This document shows positions 16,191-49,287 of a stretch of DNA of 64,000 nt, piece after piece. This DNA comes from Girardia tigrina. Its lineage: Eukaryota. Both the position numbers and the translations under genes were made by a program. Every line of letters starts with the position of its first letter. Position 1 is the stretch's first letter. The notes under the pieces are model-generated. The model had not been told where the DNA came from. It saw only the letters and a program-made list of their open reading frames with translations, and made no database searches. The stretch is from positions 3,811-67,810 of the forward strand of contig MQRK01217482.1 of assembly GCA_001938485.1 (NCBI GenBank). Reading direction: 5' to 3'.

Positions 16191-19100
16191 ATTTATTCCT
16201 GTTGTGAGGTTCTTTCTTTACTAAAACTTTTTCACCGATCTGAAAAAGTCTATGGTCTCTTCTGCTTACTTCTGAGTTTCCAAGTTTGTCTACTGCCTTT
16301 CCTGATTCAAATTTCATTTCCAAAATTATTCTCTGATGATTGGTACAACTTGATGTTGGTAACCCATGTAAAATAACTTTCCTCCCAAACACAATTTCAA
16401 ACGGTGAACGTTTAGTTGAGCTCTGATATGTTGCGTTTATTGAAAACTCTATTTTTGGAATCATCTTCTCCCACGATATTTTATTTTTCTTACTCTTCAA
16501 AGATGTAACCAACATATCTCGTACAGTTCGAATGGCTCGCTCTGCTATTCCATTTACTTGATGTTGATACGGAGAAGTAAATTCTTGTTTAATTCCAAAT
16601 TTTTCTGTTAGTTTCCTTAAAATAGCTGCTCCAAGTAATCGACCTGGGTCTGACAATATAGATTTAGGCTTCCCAAACTTGTAAAGCCAGTGATTTTTAT
16701 AGATTCTGCCGCGCTCAATTCATCTTGTTTAGTCAAAGGTACAAGACTCACTAGTTTGCTGAAACGGTTCATCATCACAAGTAAATATTTGTACCTGGAT
16801 TTGAATTCTGAGAAGTATGCTACATCAATTATAATTTGTTCCAGCAGCCCAAAATCTTCTCGTGGTATCAATAACTCTTTTGTACGTCCCGAATATATTT
16901 TTATTTTTGCACAGATTTCACATCTCTGTACTATGAGTTCGATGTACCATGAGTTTTACTCATATTTGGCCAATAATAGCTTTCCTGAATATAGTCAACT
17001 AACATTTTACTTCTCAGATGACACAACTCCTAGTGAATATACTGGGTGAACTTCTCTGTATAATTTTCTGGGACTACTATTTGTAGTGTTTTTTTTTAAT
17101 TCTTCCATATAACAATTCCATCTATCAATTCATATTGATCCAAAATCTTGAAATATTTCCTTTTTTTCACTTCAAAATTTATATTCTGAGAGGAACCTCC
17201 AAGCCATTGATGTATTGATTTCAGTATTGAGTCTGACAGTTGTATCGCTCTGATGTCTTCATTGTTCAAATCTCCTGTTTCTATGGTGTTTATGAACTTT
17301 ACTTTTGATTTATTTGACTTTGCTCCCTGATGACTTGTCAAACATTGAGTACATAGTTTTTCATCAATTCTTAAAAGTCCATCAGCATTAGTATGCTCTT
17401 TTCCTTTCCGATATTCCAAAATAAATTTAAAACTCGATAAATTAGCAATCCATGTCTGGAATTGTGGACTAATAGGCTTGTTGGTTTTCGTCATGTAAGT
17501 TAAAACCTTATGATCCGTGCGGACTAAATATTTCTTCCCATAAAGATAATGTCTGAAATACATTTTAAACTCATGAACCGCCAGCATTTCTTTTCTAGTT
17601 ACACAATGACAATTTTTGTGATCGTTTAGAGTTCTAGATGCAAATGCAATAACTTTTACATTCCCACTATTATCATTTTGACTCAAAACTGCTCCGATAG
17701 CCCCAAAACTTGGATCCGTGTCTAAAATCATTGTTTTCTTCATATCATGATGTGCTAATATTCGAGTTGTTGCCAATTCACACTTCAAGTTATTACAACT
17801 CGACATGCAATCTTCCGTCCAGTAAATTCTTTTCTCTTTTTCACTCAGCATAGCATACAATTGTGAGGTAATTAATGCGTAATCTTTAATGAACCGCCGA
17901 TAATAGTTTGCTAACAATAAAAATGATCTCAGCTGTGTAATACATCCTGGGCTTGGAGCTTGCATAATCTTTTTGATTTTATAATCGTTCATTTCAACGC
18001 CATTGTTGCTGATTGTGTGTCTCAAAAACTTAAATCTTCTAGTTCCAAAAGCACATTTATCTGGGTATGTCATCAAATCAGATTGCTTAATTATTGTAAA
18101 CACTTGTTTTAATATATTTAAATGGTCTTCCTCATTCTTAGCATAAATTAATATATCGTCTAAATATACAATAACTCCTTTGTAAAGCAAATCCTTAATC
18201 AATAAATTCATAAGGCTCTGGAAAGTTTTTGGAGCTGTGCATAATCCAAACTATTAGCGCTTGAAATGAAATTTACCGATTTTAGTACTAAAAGCTGTTT
18301 TTAATTTTGATGCTTCATCCAGTTCCACCTGATAATGTGCTTGGCCTAAAGCAATGAACGAAAAAATTACTGACCCCCTAAAGTATCCAACAATGTGTAA
18401 ATATCAGGTACAGGAGATATAAATTTCTCCGTAACATTATTCAATCTTCTAAAATCTAAGCACATTCTGATGGATTCACCTTTTTTCGGTACAATAACCA
18501 CAGGAGAATTCCAAGAACTCTTAAATGACTTAATAATCTAAGCTTTTAATAAATCTTCAAGATGCATGGGCTGGCTTCTAGGAATTATTGAACCGGTAGT
18601 CCGGATTTTATGTTTGATTACCATTGTGTGGTCTAAATCAAATTTTGAAGCCATTAAAATTAATCCATATTATTTAACAAGTAAAGTTAATGGCAAGTTT
18701 GACTTGTCAATTAAACTCCTTAACGCGGCAGTAATACGATGACGATTATTAAATTTCAATTTCACTTCCAAAGTATCTATAGTATTCACTTCCGTTAAGC
18801 CTATGCCATACATTGTCATCATATCGAATCTTCCAATAAATCCAGGGGATATATTTCGCACAATCACTATTCCTTTTTTCCCTTAACACCGTCCCACAAA
18901 ATATCAACATATATTTTACCTAAACACATTTCAGGACTTGTAGAGAAAAACACCTGAAAGTTTAATGTCTGATCTCTGCATATCTGGTCTTCTTATCCGA
19001 TGCCAGTTATCTTCGCTCATAACTGTGTTTGAAGCACCGTAATCCCATAACATTTCAACATTAATTCCATTACAATTCATCAAACTCCATATTCTACCAT

Positions 19101-20348
19101 CTGCCTCTGGAACATCCTCTCTTTCATCACCTGTCTCATTCTTCGTCCTCTATCTCTGCCTTCAATCATATTTACTGACTCAACCTTACAGAAGAGATAG
19201 GCACGATGGGTTGATATCGGTTTTTTTTGTCGTTATCCTCTTCAATTTCCTGTAATTTTTCCTCGATCGGGTCATCAGTTTCATCATCATGGATGCACAT
19301 TATTCGTCTTGGGGAAATTTGATTTGGTTTTGTTGCCAAATAACAATCTTTGAATCTATGATCGTGCTTACCGCATATTAAAAAACAATTTCTCAAGCGA
19401 CATTTTCTTCTTTGATGGGTTGTCTCCAAAACAGAAACATGAGCCGGGAAGGAGAAACTCCGGATTCGGCGGGGCAATACCTCTACACTTATTATAAAAC
19501 TCCTTTGCTATCATTTTCATAGATCTCCGAGGCCTATTATTCTGACCATATCGATCTTCAGACTGATTTCGAGATGGGGTTGTGTGACGCAAATATCTAT
19601 TATCAAAAAAATGATCATTATTACCGACAATAGGCTGTGATCTGTCTAGAATTCAGGACGGCTGTCGTACAGAATGACTGGGCGGTGTAAACAGATGTGC
19701 ATACTCTGGTTTGGTTATTCTGGATACCATTTCGGCATACTTGGTTTTGAACGCATTGATCTCCTAACGCACTGTCAATTTTTCAAAATTACTAGTCAGC
19801 TCTCGGCGCCTGTCATTACTTAAGGAAGGATCCAACGCCAAAGACTCTCTCAATTTGTCACATTTCAGTCCCTGAAATACAAATAATCGAGTCATTTCTT
19901 CTGCGGATAACTTTAGATTGAAAATTTCATTCACCATTTTCCGAACTCTAATCTCAAAACTTTGGTGCTTCTCGTCAGCTCTTTGCTGAACGAATGACAA
20001 AACTTTCATTTTGTCAAAAACTGTCCGCACGTCAGCAAATGTTTCGGAAAACCATTTTTCCACTTCTTCATTTGCAATACTATCTCTGTAGCTTGTTAAT
20101 TTTTGCAATAACTGCTTGGCATCCCCACACAGTAACATATGGAATGCAAAATTCAATTCCATGTGGATGAAAATTGCGAAATCCTTTGTCGTTTGAATCC
20201 AATCTTCAGCCTAATCGGATACGCCATCAAAGAAATGTTGGTTTAAGAACCAACAACTCTTGTGTCTTCTGTGGCAAATCGGAAAATATTTCCTGTCGTT
20301 CTTCTCGCTTCACTCTGGTAACTGCACTTATTTCGGCATGGTCGTCAG
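16190..20348 (-). mobile_element. Ty3/Gypsy LTR retrotransposon internal region (decayed gag-PR-RT-RH-IN)
   Basis: Gag CCHC (CFLICGKHDHRFKDC), protease-like MFMDxGAS (~19030-19060), RT VYLDD, RNase H (TDPS..IGAVL, KEMLAV, TDHK, ADGL), integrase (SDPG, YQHQVNGIAERAIRT, SPFEIVFGR). Domain order is PR-RT-RH-IN. No LTRs recovered. Confidence 0.92.
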
Positions 20349-30049: not shown

Positions 30050-31610
30050 TGTAAAGGAGAAGTTAAGTTTTAAATAAATCATTCTAGCATCGCTCGAACT
30101 AAGAAGTTGTTTTAACTGTTTGATCGCAGTGTGATATTTGAATTGTAGCGTACTGATAGAGGTGAATTTACATTTGTACTTCAATTGTTGTTGCAGAATA
30201 AATTATTATTAAAAGGATTTGTTCATTCTTCATATTTTATGGTTGGAGGAAACCTTTTGGTCGATTTGGAGTCAGATCAGTAGTTTAATATAAATAAAGA
30301 TAGAAACGAGATTTAATTGTAATACCCAACATAATATATTTGGTGAGCCCGACTATTTAATTCAAAATATCTTTCTGAATCAATTGAAGCACAACCATTG
30401 TGAAGATTCTTTAGGATAAATATATTAAAGATTATTTTGCTGAGTATTGGTCGAATTATTGACGAAAATATTAAATTGTGTTAAAGAAAATATTCAAAAG
30501 TGTCGAGATATTATTTAAGGAATAAAGAATTTGGAAATAAAATCATGATTGAAGAAAATAGAGAAGTAAATAACGATTTGGCAAGCTTCCAGAGATTACC
30601 TGTGAATCAATATGGAGAAGATCCAGTTGATTTTGTTGATTTTATGACTGATTACTATATGTGCGTATCGGCCTATGGCTGGTCAGACAAAATAATGATT
30701 CAAAGATTACCTTTGTATCTGAAAGGTGCAGCACGTGAAGCTTTTAATCAAATTGATAAACGTACAGTGGTTGAGTGGTCAAGAATTAAGGATGCCCTTG
30801 CTGAAAAAATAATCAGTAGAGATATCGGATGACTTTTACGAAAGAAATTCTATACAAGAGTGCAAAATAGCAATGAATCAGTTAATGAATTCGCTTTTCA
30901 TCTATCTACGCTAGCAGAAAAAGCTTTTTTGCAAAAAGAAAAAGTGGTCGGAACAAACAAATAAACTTGTAGAGGATCAATTTTGGTCTGGAATTCAAAA
31001 TCACTTTAAAACAGCACTGAGTCTGGTTGAATATGAAAATTTTGATGAATTAGTGAAAAAAGCTATGAGAATTGAAATGAATTCAAACATTGGTCAAGCT
31101 CGCCTAGTTTTTACGACTGAAATGAAATCGTTTGAACGTCCACCCAAATCAATTATAAAAAGAAGTGAGTCTGAAGAGGAAAGTGATGGTTATGTTTCTC
31201 CTAGAATGCAAAGATTCCAACAAACAGATGACAACAGAAGGACAAGAAATCAATATTTCCAGAATAACAACAAAAACAACGGAAACAGAAGTCCTAAGTT
31301 CACCAGATCAAACAATTTCCAACAAAATGATCGCCCAACATTTAGAAATGACCAAAAACATTTTGACCAAAGAATTCCAAGATGCTATAATTGCAACAAA
31401 GTTGGTCATCTTAGTAATCAATGTTGGTTTAAACAACAATCGAATCCACCAAATATTAAAACTTGTTTCAATTATGGTAAACAGGGTCACACATCGAATG
31501 TTTGTAGATTTAAAACGAGATTGTTAACACCGTCACCGCAACGTGACAAAGTAAATTTTAAAGGCCAAATTCAATGTGAAAGTTCAAAAAATATGGACAT
31601 TATTTGATCA
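30050..31610 (+). mobile_element. Ty3/Gypsy 5' LTR + PBS + disrupted gag
   Basis: Putative LTR TGTAAAGG (30050) with AATAAA, ending near 30331-30340. PBS TGGTGAGCCCGAC at 30341 resembles the tRNA-Trp complement. Gag has LPLYLKGAAREAF and two Zn knuckles (CYNCNKVGHLSNQC, CFNYGKQGHTSNVC). Confidence 0.85.
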
Positions 31611-31619
31611 GTTTCTATA

Positions 31620-34005
31620 CCATTTTTACTGACAATCTATCCTAAAAGTTTTATTCTTTCTGTTAAAAATTGACACTTTTCTGGGTTAATTCTTAAACCT
31701 GCTTCCTTAATTTTTTCCAGTACATGTTTTATTCGTTGCATATACTCTTGTTTATTTTTTGCAAAAACCAAAATATCGTCCAAATATACTACTGCCTCTT
31801 TCCAGTTTAAATCTCCTAGGACTTTGATCATTTGCTCTTGGAAAGTTTATGGGGCTGCTGCTATCCCGAACGGCATTCTTTTGAAACAATACTGTCCGTT
31901 CTTTTTTGAGAATGCTGCTCTAATCTTTGATTCTTCCTCCAACTCGACTTTTTAGTACGCGTTTCCCAGATCAATTGTACTAAAATACTGCTCACTATTC
32001 AGTGTGTTCAGCATGTCATCTACATTTGGCATAGGAAACGCTGGCCTGACGGTAATTCTATTTAACTGGCGGAAGTCTACACACACTCGAATATCTTGTT
32101 TTTCCTTCTTCCACACACATACTAATGGGAAATTCCATGGTGAGCTACACTTTTCGATTATGTCATTTTCTTCGAAATTTTTAATAACATCATCCAATTT
32201 GTCCTCAAAATGTTTTGGTTGCCGATAAGGTTTTACTAGTATTGGATCCCCGTGTGTTTCTATTCTGTGTTTTGTCAATGATGTTTTCTCAATATCCCAC
32301 TTATCAGCCATGAATACAGATTTATAATTTGCTAGAATCTTCATTAATTGCCCGTCAATTTGCTTATCAAATATATCCATTATTCTTCTTAGCCTGTCCT
32401 CATCTGATGGGTTGTCTCTAATCACCAATATTTCTCCACCTCGAGGTATCTGTCTTTTCAGTTTTATTCCGAATTTATCCAAGAAATCTATACCTGCGAT
32501 CATTTTGGTGTCTAGTTCTTTGACCACATAAAACTCTATTAACTTTTGTGTTCCCTCAATAGTTACATTTAATTGAACGATTCCATAATTGATCAGTTCT
32601 GAATCATTTGCGCAAATGGATACGTTTTTTCGTTTCTCTTATTTTAATATATTTCATGTTTTTAATTATCTCCGCTTTAATTACATTTACTCTTGCTCCA
32701 GTGTTCAAAAGGCAATGAACTTTTCTCTTTCACGTAAAAATCTACACTTGGACGTCCTTTCAGTTCTTTATAATTTATCTTAAACTTTGATATCTTCAAT
32801 ATTTCCGTTTTACTATTTAGTTTCTTATCATCTTGAGTTGTAATACTATTACACTGCTCTTGATTTACAATATCTTCACATTCAACTTTGCACATCTCTT
32901 AAGGAATATTTTCATACCTAAAATCAAACATACAATCACACACCCATTCATGCATACAATCAAACATACATTTACATTGGTTTTCCTTGTGATCGTGCGT
33001 CCTCGTTTCTATGTTCATCACCGGATCTTCTTTTACCTCTAGAATAATCTCTTGCTGTATTCTCTTCTCTTCTATAAGACATTTCCGATCTCCTGTCCAT
33101 TTCATCACCCCTGTCGTCTAACTCCGCCAAGTGTTGTTTCTTATTCATATATGCCGGTCGTCCTCTATATCTCTGATTAGAATAATCTCTACTGTCAATC
33201 TAACGATTTTTATTATTGTCCCATTTCCGTTGGTCACATTCTTTAAACCTATTTTGGTTTTCATAACATTGTGTTCGTAGGTGTCCTCTTCTTTGACAGT
33301 GAATACACTTAACGTTCGGACATTCTCTTCTAACATGACCTTCCTCATGGCATGCCCAACAAATTATTTTTCTGACTTTATAGTTTCGACTTGTACCGTC
33401 TCTCTTTACATCGTCGTTTCGTAGTTTTGGTGTTCTTTTTTTATTCTCCACAGTTTTCCAATCGTTTTCTTTCCTTGTGTTATATGCTGCAATCAGTGAA
33501 TTTCTTTTCTTTTTCCCGTATTCATACATCCTCATTTGTATGTTTTCGATCTCCTCTGCATTTGTTACCCCTCGAATCGCTATCTCTTGATCGACTTTAT
33601 CATCGTCAATCATATTAGCATAGACCAAGTTTGATAATTCTTTCTCACCAAACTTTTTCTCTACTAATTTTTTGATTATCTCATCTGCTTTGCGGAACGC
33701 AAGTGACGGGACACTGCAACCTACTCTTAACTCTATGAGATCTTTCATCAAATCCAAAATAGATTTCTCTTTTGAAAATGCTGCTCGCATTTACTCTTCG
33801 CAAGTACTCCCTGATGCCTTCTCGTATCTCAGAATCGCATCTGGAGTCAGGTAGGGTGTTACCAGTAGGATTTTTTTCTCCTCTAATAATCCAATAATCT
33901 TTGAATACCTGTTAAAACTTATCAGGAATTCTTATAATTTGTGCTCGGATCCATTGAATGTTTCTGGACCTTTCATGTTCGGAGTCATTGGGTGTGAATT
34001 CGCCA
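31620..34005 (-). mobile_element. Ty3/Gypsy internal region (gag-PR-RT, truncated)
   Basis: PBS-like TGGCG at 34005 and gag ATG at 33988 (MTPNMKGPETFNGS). CCHC motifs CWACHEEGHVRREC and CIHCQRRGHLRTQC, protease C-terminal IAGIDFL, RT SSPWNFP...RVCVDFRQLN...VYLDD. Confidence 0.9.
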
Positions 34006-45676: not shown

Positions 45677-46486
45677 CCATGGTTTAGAAATTCTTAAACA
45701 GTTTTATTCGAACATTTGATACAAAAATAATGGTATAATTGCAATAATCACATCATTTTTACATATCTGTCACATTCAATGAATGCTCCATGAAAATTCT
45801 TTGATTGCCGGCATTAGATTTTAGATTTTATGTCGTCGAAATATTTTGAATGTCGCATTCACTTTTTCTATCTCAATTGTGTAGAAACCCAACTAAATGT
45901 ATTGTTAGAAAAATGTAACAGATAACGAAGAACAGATTTTAGTAAATAGGTTCAAAACATAGTACAACAACCATTTTTTTTCAATATTCAAAGAAAATTC
46001 AGAGTTTGAGTTCTAAACACTCTGCAATCCAATCCGTTTCACTTGTTTCTGAACATTTTGACCGAAATGAAAGTGAATGCTTTTTTTATAATACCATTGC
46101 GAGAAGTGGTTGCAACATGAATATCAGAATTCATTTTTTAACACCAAAATTTATTATTATAACAACAATTTACATATTTAAACAATTTTTCTGTTAATTT
46201 AATTATCTCGCCACAAATTAATCTATTAAATTTTTTCGATTCAATTTTTAACATCTTGCAAATTTATTAAATAATTTTCACATTAAAACTAAAAACTTAT
46301 TTTAAAATTTATTTAAAATTGTTCCATAACTTCTATTAAACTATATAAATTGATATACCTGTAAAAATATTTTTATTTATAAATAAATATTTAATATTTA
46401 ATGGTTTTCTTATCATTTTTTAATTTTAAGATATTTAAGATATTTAAATATATTTTTCATTTGTCAATTGTTTATTTTTGTATATA

Positions 46487-47817
46487 CTTAGGCTGTCTAA
46501 TAAGTTCCCGGAATATGTCATGCACGTACATGCATAAATGTATACACGTAAATATTGTATTAGAATGAAGCCACCAATCAGCTGCTTTGGCCAATCATAG
46601 AGTCACACACTTATCCACTCTCTTCTCATTGTGACAGCCCATTATTGCTGCTAACATAGTTAAGGTGCACCGTTGACGCGTTATGGATTTACAGAAAGAA
46701 CTTTTTCGTGCATACATTTACTTAGAAATGCTACGGGGACGTAAACCATGTGAAATATATAAGCAGCTGCAAGATACTAACCTGGATATTCCTTCACAGA
46801 TAACTGTATTCGAGTGGTACAAACGATTTAAAGATGGAAGGCAATTCCTTGTTGATCATCCAAGATGCGGCCGCCCAACCACATCTTCAACCGCTGAAAA
46901 TATGCATATTATCAAAGCGATTGCGGATGAAGAACCAAGGATATCTCTTAGAGCAGTAAGTGAATCGACTGGCCTGTCTAAAGATACTGTTAGACAGATT
47001 TTCACAAATCAGCTTGAATTGCGAAAGATTTGTTCGACATGGATTCCACATCACCTCTCAGAAGCAAACAAACGAAACAGGATTTGGTGTGCTCAAAGCA
47101 TCATCGCCTTATTTGAAAACCATTCCATCGCTTATCTGTTACACCATTGGGCGACAGAGGATGAGAGTTGGTTTCTGTATGAAACAGCACTGACAAAACA
47201 GCATAATCAGGCATGGCGTCATCCCACCCAACCAAAACTCACTGTTGTCCGCCCGAAGCTAACAAACAAGAAAACTCATCTCTTGCTGGCATTCACTGGT
47301 GATAAAAAGATAAGTGCTGACATTTGCTCTCCTGGAGAGACTGTGAACTCAGAGCGTTATGTGGAATTTGTTCGTTCAACTGGGGAAAAATGGCGACATG
47401 TTCACAGACACCCAAAAAAGCTGACGAAATTGTTGTGGCAACACGATAACGCACGCCCTCACACATCAAAAGAAACAATGGAATTCTTTCATCATCGTGG
47501 AGTGACACTCATCAAACAAAGCCCATATAGCCCTGATATGAATCAGTGTGATTGATGGGTGTTCAAACACGTGAAACATTCATTTCGAGGGCAGAAATTC
47601 GTGGATGGTAATGAGGTGAAAGGAAGAGCGGTGCAGGTGCTCCGCGGTCTCCCTGAAGAGAAGTTTCGTCAAGAATTGTTATCATTGTATGAACATTGCA
47701 AACTAGTTGTAATTAATCATGGAAATTATATAGTTTAAATATAATATAGAATTGTTTGGAATTTTTCATAGAAGTCACTTTTTTAAACAATCCCGGGAAC
47801 TTATTAGACAGCCCAAA
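46487..47817 (+). mobile_element. Full-length mariner (DD34D)
   Basis: TIRs CTTAGGCTGTCTAATAAGTTCCCGGAAT / rc TTTGGGCTGTCTAATAAGTTCCCGGGAT, TA TSDs, 1331 bp long. Confidence 0.95.
46683..47738 (+). pseudogene. mariner transposase with a single in-frame TGA (47553-55)
   Basis: WIPHHL, TEDESW, HDNARPH, PYSPDMNQCD (D34D). The same frame continues WVFKHVK...NHGNYIV* to 47738. Confidence 0.92.
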
Positions 47818-48118
47818 TATATGAGGGGGTGAACAGACTTATGAATCATACTGTATATTAAACGAATCCGAAATAGACTGATTGTGTGATTGGGTTCACT
47901 CGGAATTAAAGAAGGCAGATGTCTTAACTAGAGTAGCCAAAAAATGGACAGAAAGGAAATGTTTTAGTGTTCAACAAGAGGGAAAATTAAATGAGGCAAG
48001 CATGAGTCACGAGCGACATCATTTTGGGATCGATAAAAGTCGTTTGATAGCAGAAAAAGAAGGTATTAAAGTTCTCAAAGGGGATTAGGAGAGTGTTGTT
48101 CGAAACTGTCAACGGTGT

Positions 48119-48459
48119 AGACCTCCTCCCCACCTGTGGCTACACATGATTGCTCTTGTGGCACTTACCCAGGGCTAATAGCTCATAGAACTTTTCAGAA
48201 GTTGAGCCGGTTGTATCATTGTGCAGGCAAACTTGCCTACCCTCGACTAATCATTGGCCCCGCCATTACGCGTTTCCATATTCCCGCTCAAAATAGCATA
48301 CCTTTGCGAGCCCTTGCCCTCCATACAATGTTGGTCAGCACCCCAACAAGGCAAGCTTCGGACACTTTAGCCTAGAGAAGAGAGTTCTAGTTTCCCAGGG
48401 ACACCGCGTGAAGGTATATCCGACTGGCTTAACACAGGTTACCTATTAAACAGGTCCTA
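48119..48459 (-). mobile_element. 341-bp non-autonomous non-LTR retroelement with 5' HDV-like ribozyme
   Basis: Flanked by GTCAACGGTGT (48108-18) and GTCAATGGTGT (48460-70). Removing the insert rejoins the integrase CQRC-xSIDP. About 50% GC, no long ORF on the ribozyme strand, 3' end ...GTGGGGAGGAGG. Confidence 0.8.
48358..48459 (-). ncRNA. HDV-like (nested double-pseudoknot) self-cleaving ribozyme
   Basis: Minus strand: P1 (ua)GGAC / J1/2 / P2 UCGGAUAU / P3 ACC / L3 UUCACGC / P3 GGU / P1 GUCCCU / GG (P1.1) GAAA / P4 CUAGA..UCUAG / J4/2 GCUAAA (catalytic C at 48370) / P2 GUGUCCGA. Confidence 0.8.
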
Positions 48460-49287
48460 GTCAATGGTGTTAAAGTATTGATCCGCTCCTATAAATTTAT
48501 CGGTAGAAAAATGTTGTGAAAGTTTGGCTATAGATCATACTCATTATAAAAATAGAGTATACTTATCAGAAATCGATAGTGGAACCAGTCGATTCTCAAT
48601 CTGGAGAGAAGTAAAAACTGAAGGAGCCGACAATGTAATAAAAATTTTCGATTAGTTATTTATGGAGCATGGAGCTTCCATAGAAATCTTTGTCAACAAT
48701 GGAGAAGCTTTTACAGATGACAAATTCAAAAAGTTTTTTTATTAAATGGAGCGTCAAGACCAATTATCGATGTGTACATAGACCAAGTACGAATGGTATC
48801 GAATATTGATATTGATGAAGCTGTGTATTGGTTTAATATTGGTCCTAAAAGAAGAAAAGATGGAATTAAATCGCCAAGTAATATATTATTTAACTACAAT
48901 TGGAGGTTAATAGGGGAAAAAATAAATGTGGAACCGATGAGTGACGACTGTAGTATGTGTTAAGCCGAATCAACATGTTCGATGTACAAGCCAATAGGGT
49001 CGTGACATAATCACTAAAAATTAGTCACAATAAATAGGAAGTATATGAAGTTTCGAAACTTATCCAGGATATCAAAAAACGATCTGACAATCAGAATAAT
49101 TCCAAAAACGAGCTTATTGGTGATTTAGAAAACAGTTTAAACGAGAATGAAGTAACTGATGAGGAGTCGAGTGTTGAAGAGTTTACAGATCAAATAGAGC
49201 GTGACGAGCAACGAAGAAGCAAACGAGAGAGAAGAAAACCACCGTGGCACAGAGATTACGAAATGGGAAACTGACTTCTGGCGGGGA

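Follow-up and report, generated by a model that had tools for sequence, protein, structure and literature searches.

An HDV-like ribozyme fold at the 5' end of short retroposons and RTE-like LINEs of Girardia tigrina, decayed in one copy

The locus

The window, i.e., the whole stretch of 64 kb of Girardia tigrina DNA analysed here, derives from an assembly of 1.43 Gb. On its minus strand lies a short insert, a copy of a retroposon which we designate family A (Table 1). Homology to paralogs extends from the first ribozyme bases to near 48117, and near-full-length paralogs are about 79-86% identical to the window insert. Nucleotide 1 of the ribozyme fold (48459) directly adjoins the upstream copy of the target-site duplication (48470-48460). 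At the other end the final AC of the 341-bp insert is indistinguishable from the first bases of the downstream duplication. A GTG motif, considered below for related insertions, is missing from the upstream flank. The flanks contain short frames without a Pfam match at the cut-off and no recognisable gene. Window positions 46482-47822, about 290 bp away from the insert, are taken up by an unrelated DNA transposon of the Mariner type, which has inverted ends of 33 bp and a frame of 292 aa. Frames at 16192-20210 and 30915-33790 resemble, by eye only, pieces of reverse transcriptase (RT), integrase and protease of LTR retroelements.

Table 1. Features of the insert and of its ribozyme fold (positions in the window).
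Feature	Position	Strand	Remark
Family-A short non-coding retroposon copy, 341 bp	48119..48459	-	paralog homology ends at both junctions
Target-site duplication, upstream copy, 11 bp	48460..48470	-	10/11 identical to downstream copy
Target-site duplication, downstream copy, 11 bp	48108..48118	-	one mismatch against upstream copy
G-rich 3' terminus, without poly(A)	48119..48135	-	last 8-9 bases alone resemble LINE 3' end
HDV-like ribozyme fold, decayed	48358..48459	-	8/102 positions differ from the family's commonest letters
P1 5' strand	48459-48454	-	4/6 pairs left; first two bases TA, not GG as in the family
J1/2, 30 nt	48453-48424	-	family hairpin down to 3/5 pairs here
P2 5' strand	48423-48416	-	pairs with P2 3' strand, 48365-48358
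P3	48415-48413 with 48405-48403	-	encloses the 7-nt L3
L3, 7 nt	48412-48406	-	inside P3
P1 3' strand	48402-48397	-	followed by P1.1 GG and J1.1/4; segment 48391..48402
P1.1 GG	48396-48395	-	directly after P1 3' strand
P4 hairpin	48390-48386 with 48376-48372	-	5 bp here
J4/2	48371-48366	-	predicted catalytic C at 48370
P2 3' strand	48365-48358	-	closes the fold

The fold of the window copy

An initial annotation, made from the letters of the window, had placed all elements of an HDV-like ribozyme on the minus strand in canonical order. Each of them is found again base for base at the position claimed, including the catalytic C. The fold starts at the first base of the insert and abuts the 11-bp duplication. 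The predicted cut site, 5' of 48459, thus coincides with the boundary between element and duplication, as had been stated.

When the window copy is compared with its family the picture changes in detail. It differs from the family's commonest letters at nt 1, 2, 12, 13, 16, 42, 49, and 75, and several finer points of the annotation turn out to reflect such private changes. P2 indeed has 8 bp with two G-U pairs, yet one of these G-U pairs is private to this copy. P4 has 5 bp as described, but this again is a private change; the family P4 has 6 bp. The hairpin drawn in J1/2 is pairable, but it is a product of private mutations, and only 2 of the 43 heads compared have it complete. The J1/2 hairpin typical of the family pairs nt 9-13 with 18-22 and is present in 30 of these heads. 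The proposed closeness of L3 to that of the CPEB3 ribozyme was over-read: the U at L3 position 2 is a private mutation, and the L3 of the family has two C.

P1 is the helix at issue for activity. HDV-like ribozymes require a P1 of at least 6 bp, as stated in a review (PMC8495972), and the corresponding family state is six pairs with a G-U at the cut site. The window copy has 4 of the 6 pairs and none at nt 1-2. Its P1 duplex is calculated at -4.8 kcal/mol vs -8.7 kcal/mol in an intact paralog, and the new J1/2 hairpin can sequester P1 bases 5-6. A J1/2 helix as such can speed ribozymes of this kind (PMC4908430). The annotation had pointed to UA in place of GG, to four P1 pairs and to a copy that may be inactive; this was a reasonable guess. 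Because four pairs are left where at least six are needed, the window copy probably is inactive, the decayed and presumably dead front end of a short jumping element. That it still cuts and acts on a host transcript appears most improbable to us. P2, P3, P1.1 (with one G-U) and P4 can all pair in this copy and the catalytic C is in place, yet a pair at the cut site is missing, P1 is down to 4 bp in competition with the new hairpin, decay is like that of the siblings, and the flanks offer no recognisable gene as a host.

Rfam models, suggested in the annotation as a check, detected no ribozyme between 46000 and 51000 even at E values up to 10. Neither the window copy nor an intact A copy nor the head of LINE2 (see below) reached an Rfam gathering score. 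In the intact A copy L002, HDV-F-prausnitzii, HDV_ribozyme and drz-agam-1 align to the core at E 0.5-3.2, with 15.5-18.4 bits against gathering scores of 37-50, i.e., below cut-off. RF00094 aligns to the LINE2 head from model position 1 to 89, end to end (E 0.0075); with 27-30.8 bits against gathering scores of 44-50 this head is below cut-off as well. The HDV-type models of Rfam contain neither the pseudoknot nor a long J1/2. A descriptor search, likewise suggested, was carried out with an HDV descriptor of our own. In the 64-kb window it returned one relaxed match (up to 2 P1 mismatches), and this at the core in question, but no strict match; the relaxed match took a P1 5' stretch other than the one annotated. 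In 20 shuffled windows the same descriptor gave 0 strict and 1 relaxed match. A covariance model built exclusively from 10 cores of the sister families B and C had a single window match, 48358-48422, with 59.2 bits and a rough E of 3.7e-13. This shows kinship of the window core, not catalysis. Plain folding of the window fold was no better than that of shuffles (z 0.52), which is uninformative because the program cannot form pseudoknots.

Family A

Family A elements are about 354 bp long and non-coding; an intact 354-bp paralog has stops in all six frames. They are dispersed, lack poly(A) and terminal repeats, and are bordered by target duplications of variable length, mostly 9-13 bp. Dispersed copies with duplications, devoid of terminal repeats and of an ORF, are what defines a non-autonomous non-LTR retroposon. 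There are at least 143 copies, counted as exact matches of the 14-base 3' terminus, vs 3 matches of a control pattern. A 181-base query yielded 1412 first-look candidates, a count which includes the sister families, and 40 of these were scored. Copies of A are about 80-90% alike. The family (L194-L222) comprises several subfamilies, in which the stem of a 3' hairpin is kept and the loop varies; a constant stem with a changing loop points to a structured RNA body. A tRNA head was seen in none of the five loci examined (0/5). We considered a classical Pol III SINE, whose head with A and B boxes would derive from tRNA, 5S or 7SL RNA, and rejected it: there is no tRNA, no B-box word in A and no such Rfam match.

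Typical A heads start with GG and have a 6-bp P1 closed by a G-U pair at nt 1. Their five helices are arranged in the nested double-pseudoknot order of HDV-like ribozymes, L3 is conserved, and the catalytic C at the start of J4/2 aligns with its counterpart in three Rfam models. Of 43 distinct heads, 39 have preserved this C, 35 P4, 34 P1.1, 32 P3, 27 P2 and 22 P1. All pairs together with the catalytic C are retained in 6. L002, L030 and L265 are examples of intact natural copies.

The junctions were examined in 19 A insertions with both ends and a scored duplication, copies lacking such a score being excluded (in a separate count 14 of 16 distinct A copies qualified). In 11 insertions the last base of the duplication directly precedes nt 1, in 4 the duplication overlaps with nt 1 by 1-2 shared G, and in the other 4 it stops 1-3 nt short. 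The paralogs, then, preserve the fold and have their first base at the predicted cut site, which supports the annotation's reading that the inserted RNA would have been self-cleaved at this junction. G1G2 is kept in 27 of the 43 heads and missing in 16; about 5 losses would be expected from the decay of 6-8% elsewhere. Since the loss of G1G2 exceeds decay elsewhere, the TA at nt 1-2 of the window copy probably arose at integration.

Sister families and covariation

Two further short families share a core related to A and have other bodies: family B, which is about 418 bp long and has 1564 candidates, and family C, with a length of about 400 bp and 1284 candidates. Both start at C1 of a 7-bp P1. 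The duplication ends immediately before nt 1 (offset 0) in 8 of 13 B and in 5 of 15 C duplications. The G at which A starts is equivalent to nt 2 in the two other families; the cut site of A would therefore have shifted by one base relative to theirs. A motif just behind the ribozyme is common to A, B, C, LINE2, and LINE3, a pattern made after seeing the sequences.

Collecting paralogs and testing covariation had also been proposed. The A copies are too young to supply covariation, which comes from the sister families. The pairing of the double pseudoknot is kept, with compensatory changes in P1.1, P2, and P3 among the three families. In 17 chosen cores from A, B, and C, 97.2% of 284 cells are paired, vs 10-51% in slid controls. 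The sequence of P1 varies between families and still pairs. Changes on both sides occur in 4 of 18 pairs, two in P2, one in P3 and one in P1.1. The covariation score was reached by 0 of 500 shuffles, the count of pairs changed on both sides by 96 of 500, and that of further pair types by 499 of 500. Covariation therefore is support, not proof, for the fold, because the changes are few and inherited, the families are related and 96/500 shuffles attain the two-sided count. Over the whole set the better fit is a P1.1 register with a 7-nt P1 3' strand, 85% paired with one double change; the register of the initial annotation is 77% paired with none. Three consecutive G in A permit either register.

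Conceivably the fold is an inherited relic, nt 1 being the start of an internal promoter (like Pr77 or a Pol III promoter) and the short families no longer cutting. We consider this unlikely. The P4 loop of family B is a perfect match to a Pol III B-box-like word (e.g., L070:1564-1575). B retains a single P1.1 pair, and nt 1 of B and C is C instead of G. In L1Tc the first 77 nt are promoter and ribozyme at the same time (PMC3185411; PMC4035085). The very same L1Tc ribozyme, however, cuts at C1 and works with one P1.1 pair (PMC3185411). Neither A nor C nor the LINEs contain the B-box word, families A and B include four T in a row, the five loci mentioned are free of tRNA, and pairs were maintained by two-sided changes after the families had split.

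LINE partners

A search for APE endonuclease domains led to two coding elements, LINE1 and LINE2. They are 3.9-4.0 kb long, contain a single ORF with APE and RT, and start at G1 of a 7-bp P1. Their heads are HDV-like with a G-U at nt 1, which directly follows the duplication in 5 of 7 LINE2 and in 2 of 2 LINE1 copies. The initial annotation had pointed out that HDV-like ribozymes process the 5' ends of non-LTR elements; the related heads on coding non-LTR elements of the very same genome are in line with such a role. In the 1207-aa frame Pfam identifies Exo_endo_phos_2, RVT_1 and a weak zf-C2H2, and no RNase H. A single ORF with APE ahead of RT and without RNase H is the layout of RTE elements; by domain layout and relatives, not by a tree, LINE1 and LINE2 are RTE-like. 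PF20049, which we take to be an RTE marker, is carried by 59 of the 120 relatives listed and by none of the ten closest. There is at least one more related LINE: LINE3 (L226:777-850 (+), L227, L232) is of the APE type and has a compact HDV-like fold with little or no P4.

How are the short families connected to these LINEs? At the 3' end about 50 terminal bases of B and C recur in the LINEs, but only the last 8-9 of A. At the 5' end the A ribozyme core is 82-83% identical over 28-30 nt to LINE1 and LINE2 (E 0.11, weak alone). Together with the shared downstream motif this core likeness is the 5' homology expected of a bipartite LINE derivative. The link of the A head is stronger via family C, which matches LINE2 at E 1e-8. 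The body of A has mostly no detectable match in LINE1 or LINE2, and A as a plain internal deletion of either LINE was discarded for this reason. All 30 loci fetched for the 3' terminus of A were A copies and none was a LINE; searches with the 3' 114 bases of A and with its 14-base terminus returned A copies only. Of 14 inspected 5'-only matches of A, B, and C, none ran into an RT or APE frame. Given 8-9 shared bases and no LINE among the A-terminus loci, we infer the LINE partner of A from target and head only.

A search with the last 60 residues of the LINE protein (9187 candidates, 150 scored, 73-100% identical) revealed no more distant families. Applied to the APE loci of a further LINE group (L119-L125 and others like them), the descriptor found no match, but since the LINE1 heads escaped it too, such a negative does not speak for absence. 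Because nt 1 is a C in B and C, as in L1Tc, an Ingi/Vingi partner was considered. It is not favoured, because the LINEs found are without RNase H and have target and 3' end in common with B and C.

Target sites and 28S rDNA

A and the LINEs have in common target duplications of about 11 bp whose first bases, AC, follow a T. GTG at -18 to -11 is present in 11 of 19 A, 8 of 13 B, 7 of 14 C, 3 of 6 LINE2 and 1 of 2 LINE1 insertions, against a background of 5-6%. A, B, C, LINE1 and LINE2 share this target motif and two hot spots, a dispersed repeat and a site in 28S rDNA. In the dispersed repeat (L024:2020-2056 and many LINE, B and C flanks) all five insert at one position. It holds 7 of 47 A ends (three of these are one locus assembled three times), and LINE copies are there too. 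The second hot spot lies in large-subunit rRNA sequence; it holds 2 of the 47 A ends, with LINE copies at the same site.

These target data bear on another reading, namely that the ribozyme is correctly understood and A was moved by another LINE, extinct or not found, instead of LINE1 or LINE2. We regard this as distinctly unlikely. It would account for the mere 8-9 shared terminal bases, for the unmatched body of A and for the apparent age of the A copies, whose likeness of about 80-90% compares with 98-100% among LINE2 heads. Yet motif, nick position, duplication length and hot spots are those of LINE1 and LINE2. Any such partner would have to be closely related to them and to share their endonuclease preference, and a third related LINE does exist.

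The 28S site deserves a closer look. Its right half, 23 matches, is preceded by family F in 11 cases, by other sequence in 7, by an A end in 2, a LINE end in 2 and a C end in 1. Its left half, 24 matches, lies in an AT-rich repeat in 11 cases and continues into D in 6, a B variant in 2, LINE3 in 2, and a cut C, an F and other sequence in 1 each. An uninserted site was found among 0/24 left-half and 0/23 right-half matches; this is not an insertion rate, as rDNA is collapsed or broken in such an assembly. The R2 site, going by its motif, presumably lies upstream in L153.

Two other families were encountered here. Family D (L229:111-270, L223, L233, L239, L240, L241) has an HDV-like fold with a perfect 7-bp P1, P2, P3, and J4/2. 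Its L3 is structured and 54 nt long, and the fold heads a long element without a clear frame in the first 1.5 kb. Family F (L228, L245, L246, L250, L254, and others) is the commonest element end at this site (11/23).

Tandem arrays are present as well. L149:1293-5990 (G000:C255124), an array of the 28S type, consists of a deleted B variant, a full LINE1, a full B variant and a B-like head, each unit separated by the same 11-bp duplication. Similar tandems, A-C, B-A, A-B-C and B-B, exist in L025, L073, L217, and L076. L265 contains a full A copy with an intact P1 inside a 28S-site array. For this copy two P1 duplexes are predicted, with a cut at G1 of the element or 7 bases further upstream in the duplication (-9.4 and -10.0 kcal/mol).

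The first seven bases of B and C are identical to the last seven of the 28S target duplication, and LINE1 and LINE2 begin with its last five. In LINE3 at the 28S site the 6-nt P1 5' strand begins in the target duplication, which would thus supply this strand. The identity in B and C suggests that their P1 strand was captured from rDNA, and the coincidences together suggest source copies that resided in rDNA and were transcribed by the rRNA polymerase.

From here we can speculate further, and do so tentatively, as we would rather bet against the following picture in its entirety than for it. RTE-like LINEs and at least four non-coding parasites, all HDV-headed, would form one clan whose APE motif is perfectly matched in 28S rDNA. 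The rDNA copies would be the transcribed sources, released by their ribozymes from the rRNA precursor. P1 would have been captured from 28S, whereupon A shifted its cut site by one base. In tandem arrays a downstream ribozyme would make the 3' end of the preceding unit.

Relation to known systems

Ribozymes at the 5' ends of LINEs including RTE are already known, as are short, ribozyme-headed derivatives (PMC5786205, PMC6765202, PMC4035085). HDV-like ribozymes have been reported at the 5' ends of R1, R2, R4, and RTE as well as Ingi and LOA elements (Ruminski et al., 2011, as cited in PMC5786205). R1, R2, and R4 are the clades listed there as target-specific and ribozyme-bearing, and RTE is one of four clades that yield short non-autonomous elements (PMC5786205). 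The heads described here resemble these ribozymes in their nested double pseudoknot and in that nt 1 is element nt 1; they sit on coding APE and RT elements as well as on short relatives. They differ in that A combines a 6-bp P1 with a 30-nt J1/2, and in that B and C have a 7-bp P1 opened by C-G, with the consequence that the cut site would have moved by one base between the sister families.

The short families are like the R2 SIDEs, NARTc/RIME/SIDER of trypanosomatids and the bipartite RTE derivatives (PMC6765202, PMC4035085, PMC5786205): short, non-coding, with a ribozyme at nt 1, bordered by duplications and presumably dependent on LINEs in trans. B and C fit their 5'-plus-3' pattern, whereas A shares the head and 8-9 terminal bases and its body is mostly unmatched.

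A route like that proposed here for rDNA is described for R2, where P1' acquires a pairing with 28S sequence along with a shift of the cut site (PMC3774820). Junction losses of the G1G2 type are likewise on record for those R2 elements whose cut falls at their own junction (PMC3774820). The likeness to R2 with a 28S-built P1 is evident in B and C, whose P1 5' strand equals the end of the 28S duplication, and in LINE3 with a P1 derived from the duplication. In contrast to R2, A, B, C, and the LINEs encode or use an APE-type endonuclease, occupy another 28S site and are mostly dispersed. The signature of RTE-related SINEs (PMC6007223) has in common with our elements a signal located roughly one turn of the helix upstream of the duplication, and an element 3' end that matches the first bases of the duplication. 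Different here are GTGT followed by an A-rich stretch, a duplication that opens with AC, and the lack of a microsatellite tail. RTE proteins have been used for RNA-templated gene insertion with dispersed integration (PMC13708176). An incomplete literature search without Repbase found neither an RTE-type element at the 28S site nor this family; a published match is possible.

Conclusion

Taken together, family A most probably is a ribozyme-headed, non-autonomous retroposon that is released by self-cleavage at nt 1 and copied by the protein of an RTE-like LINE, the window copy probably being dead. On the sequence evidence assembled here we assign this reading a probability of roughly four in five. 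A source copy would be transcribed by read-through, be it from other repeats, from introns, or within the rRNA precursor at the 28S site. The read-through transcript would cut itself 5' of G1. The APE/RT protein of RTE-like LINEs may then nick DNA about 11-14 bases downstream of GTGT, at T^AC, and reverse transcription may be primed at the terminal AC of the element. Imprecise priming of the second strand would explain why nt 1-2 are so often missing or exchanged, in the window copy too. Most copies would decay after insertion. Contigs from four runs of three studies contain pieces of relatives at a level of at least 80%; their RNA status is a guess, and contigs cannot show ends.

The single window copy represents ordinary decay. 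The families to which it leads are a natural series of HDV-like folds, in which P1 has 6 or 7 bp, the cut site carries G-U or C-G and P1.1 counts one or two pairs, and which includes a minimal form and one with a 54-nt L3. The cut sites of these families are readable from the insertion junctions, and rules which connect fold and cut site therefore are directly testable. If the 28S link is true, this genome would harbour an APE-type, RTE-like lineage with a strong sequence preference and a refuge in rDNA.
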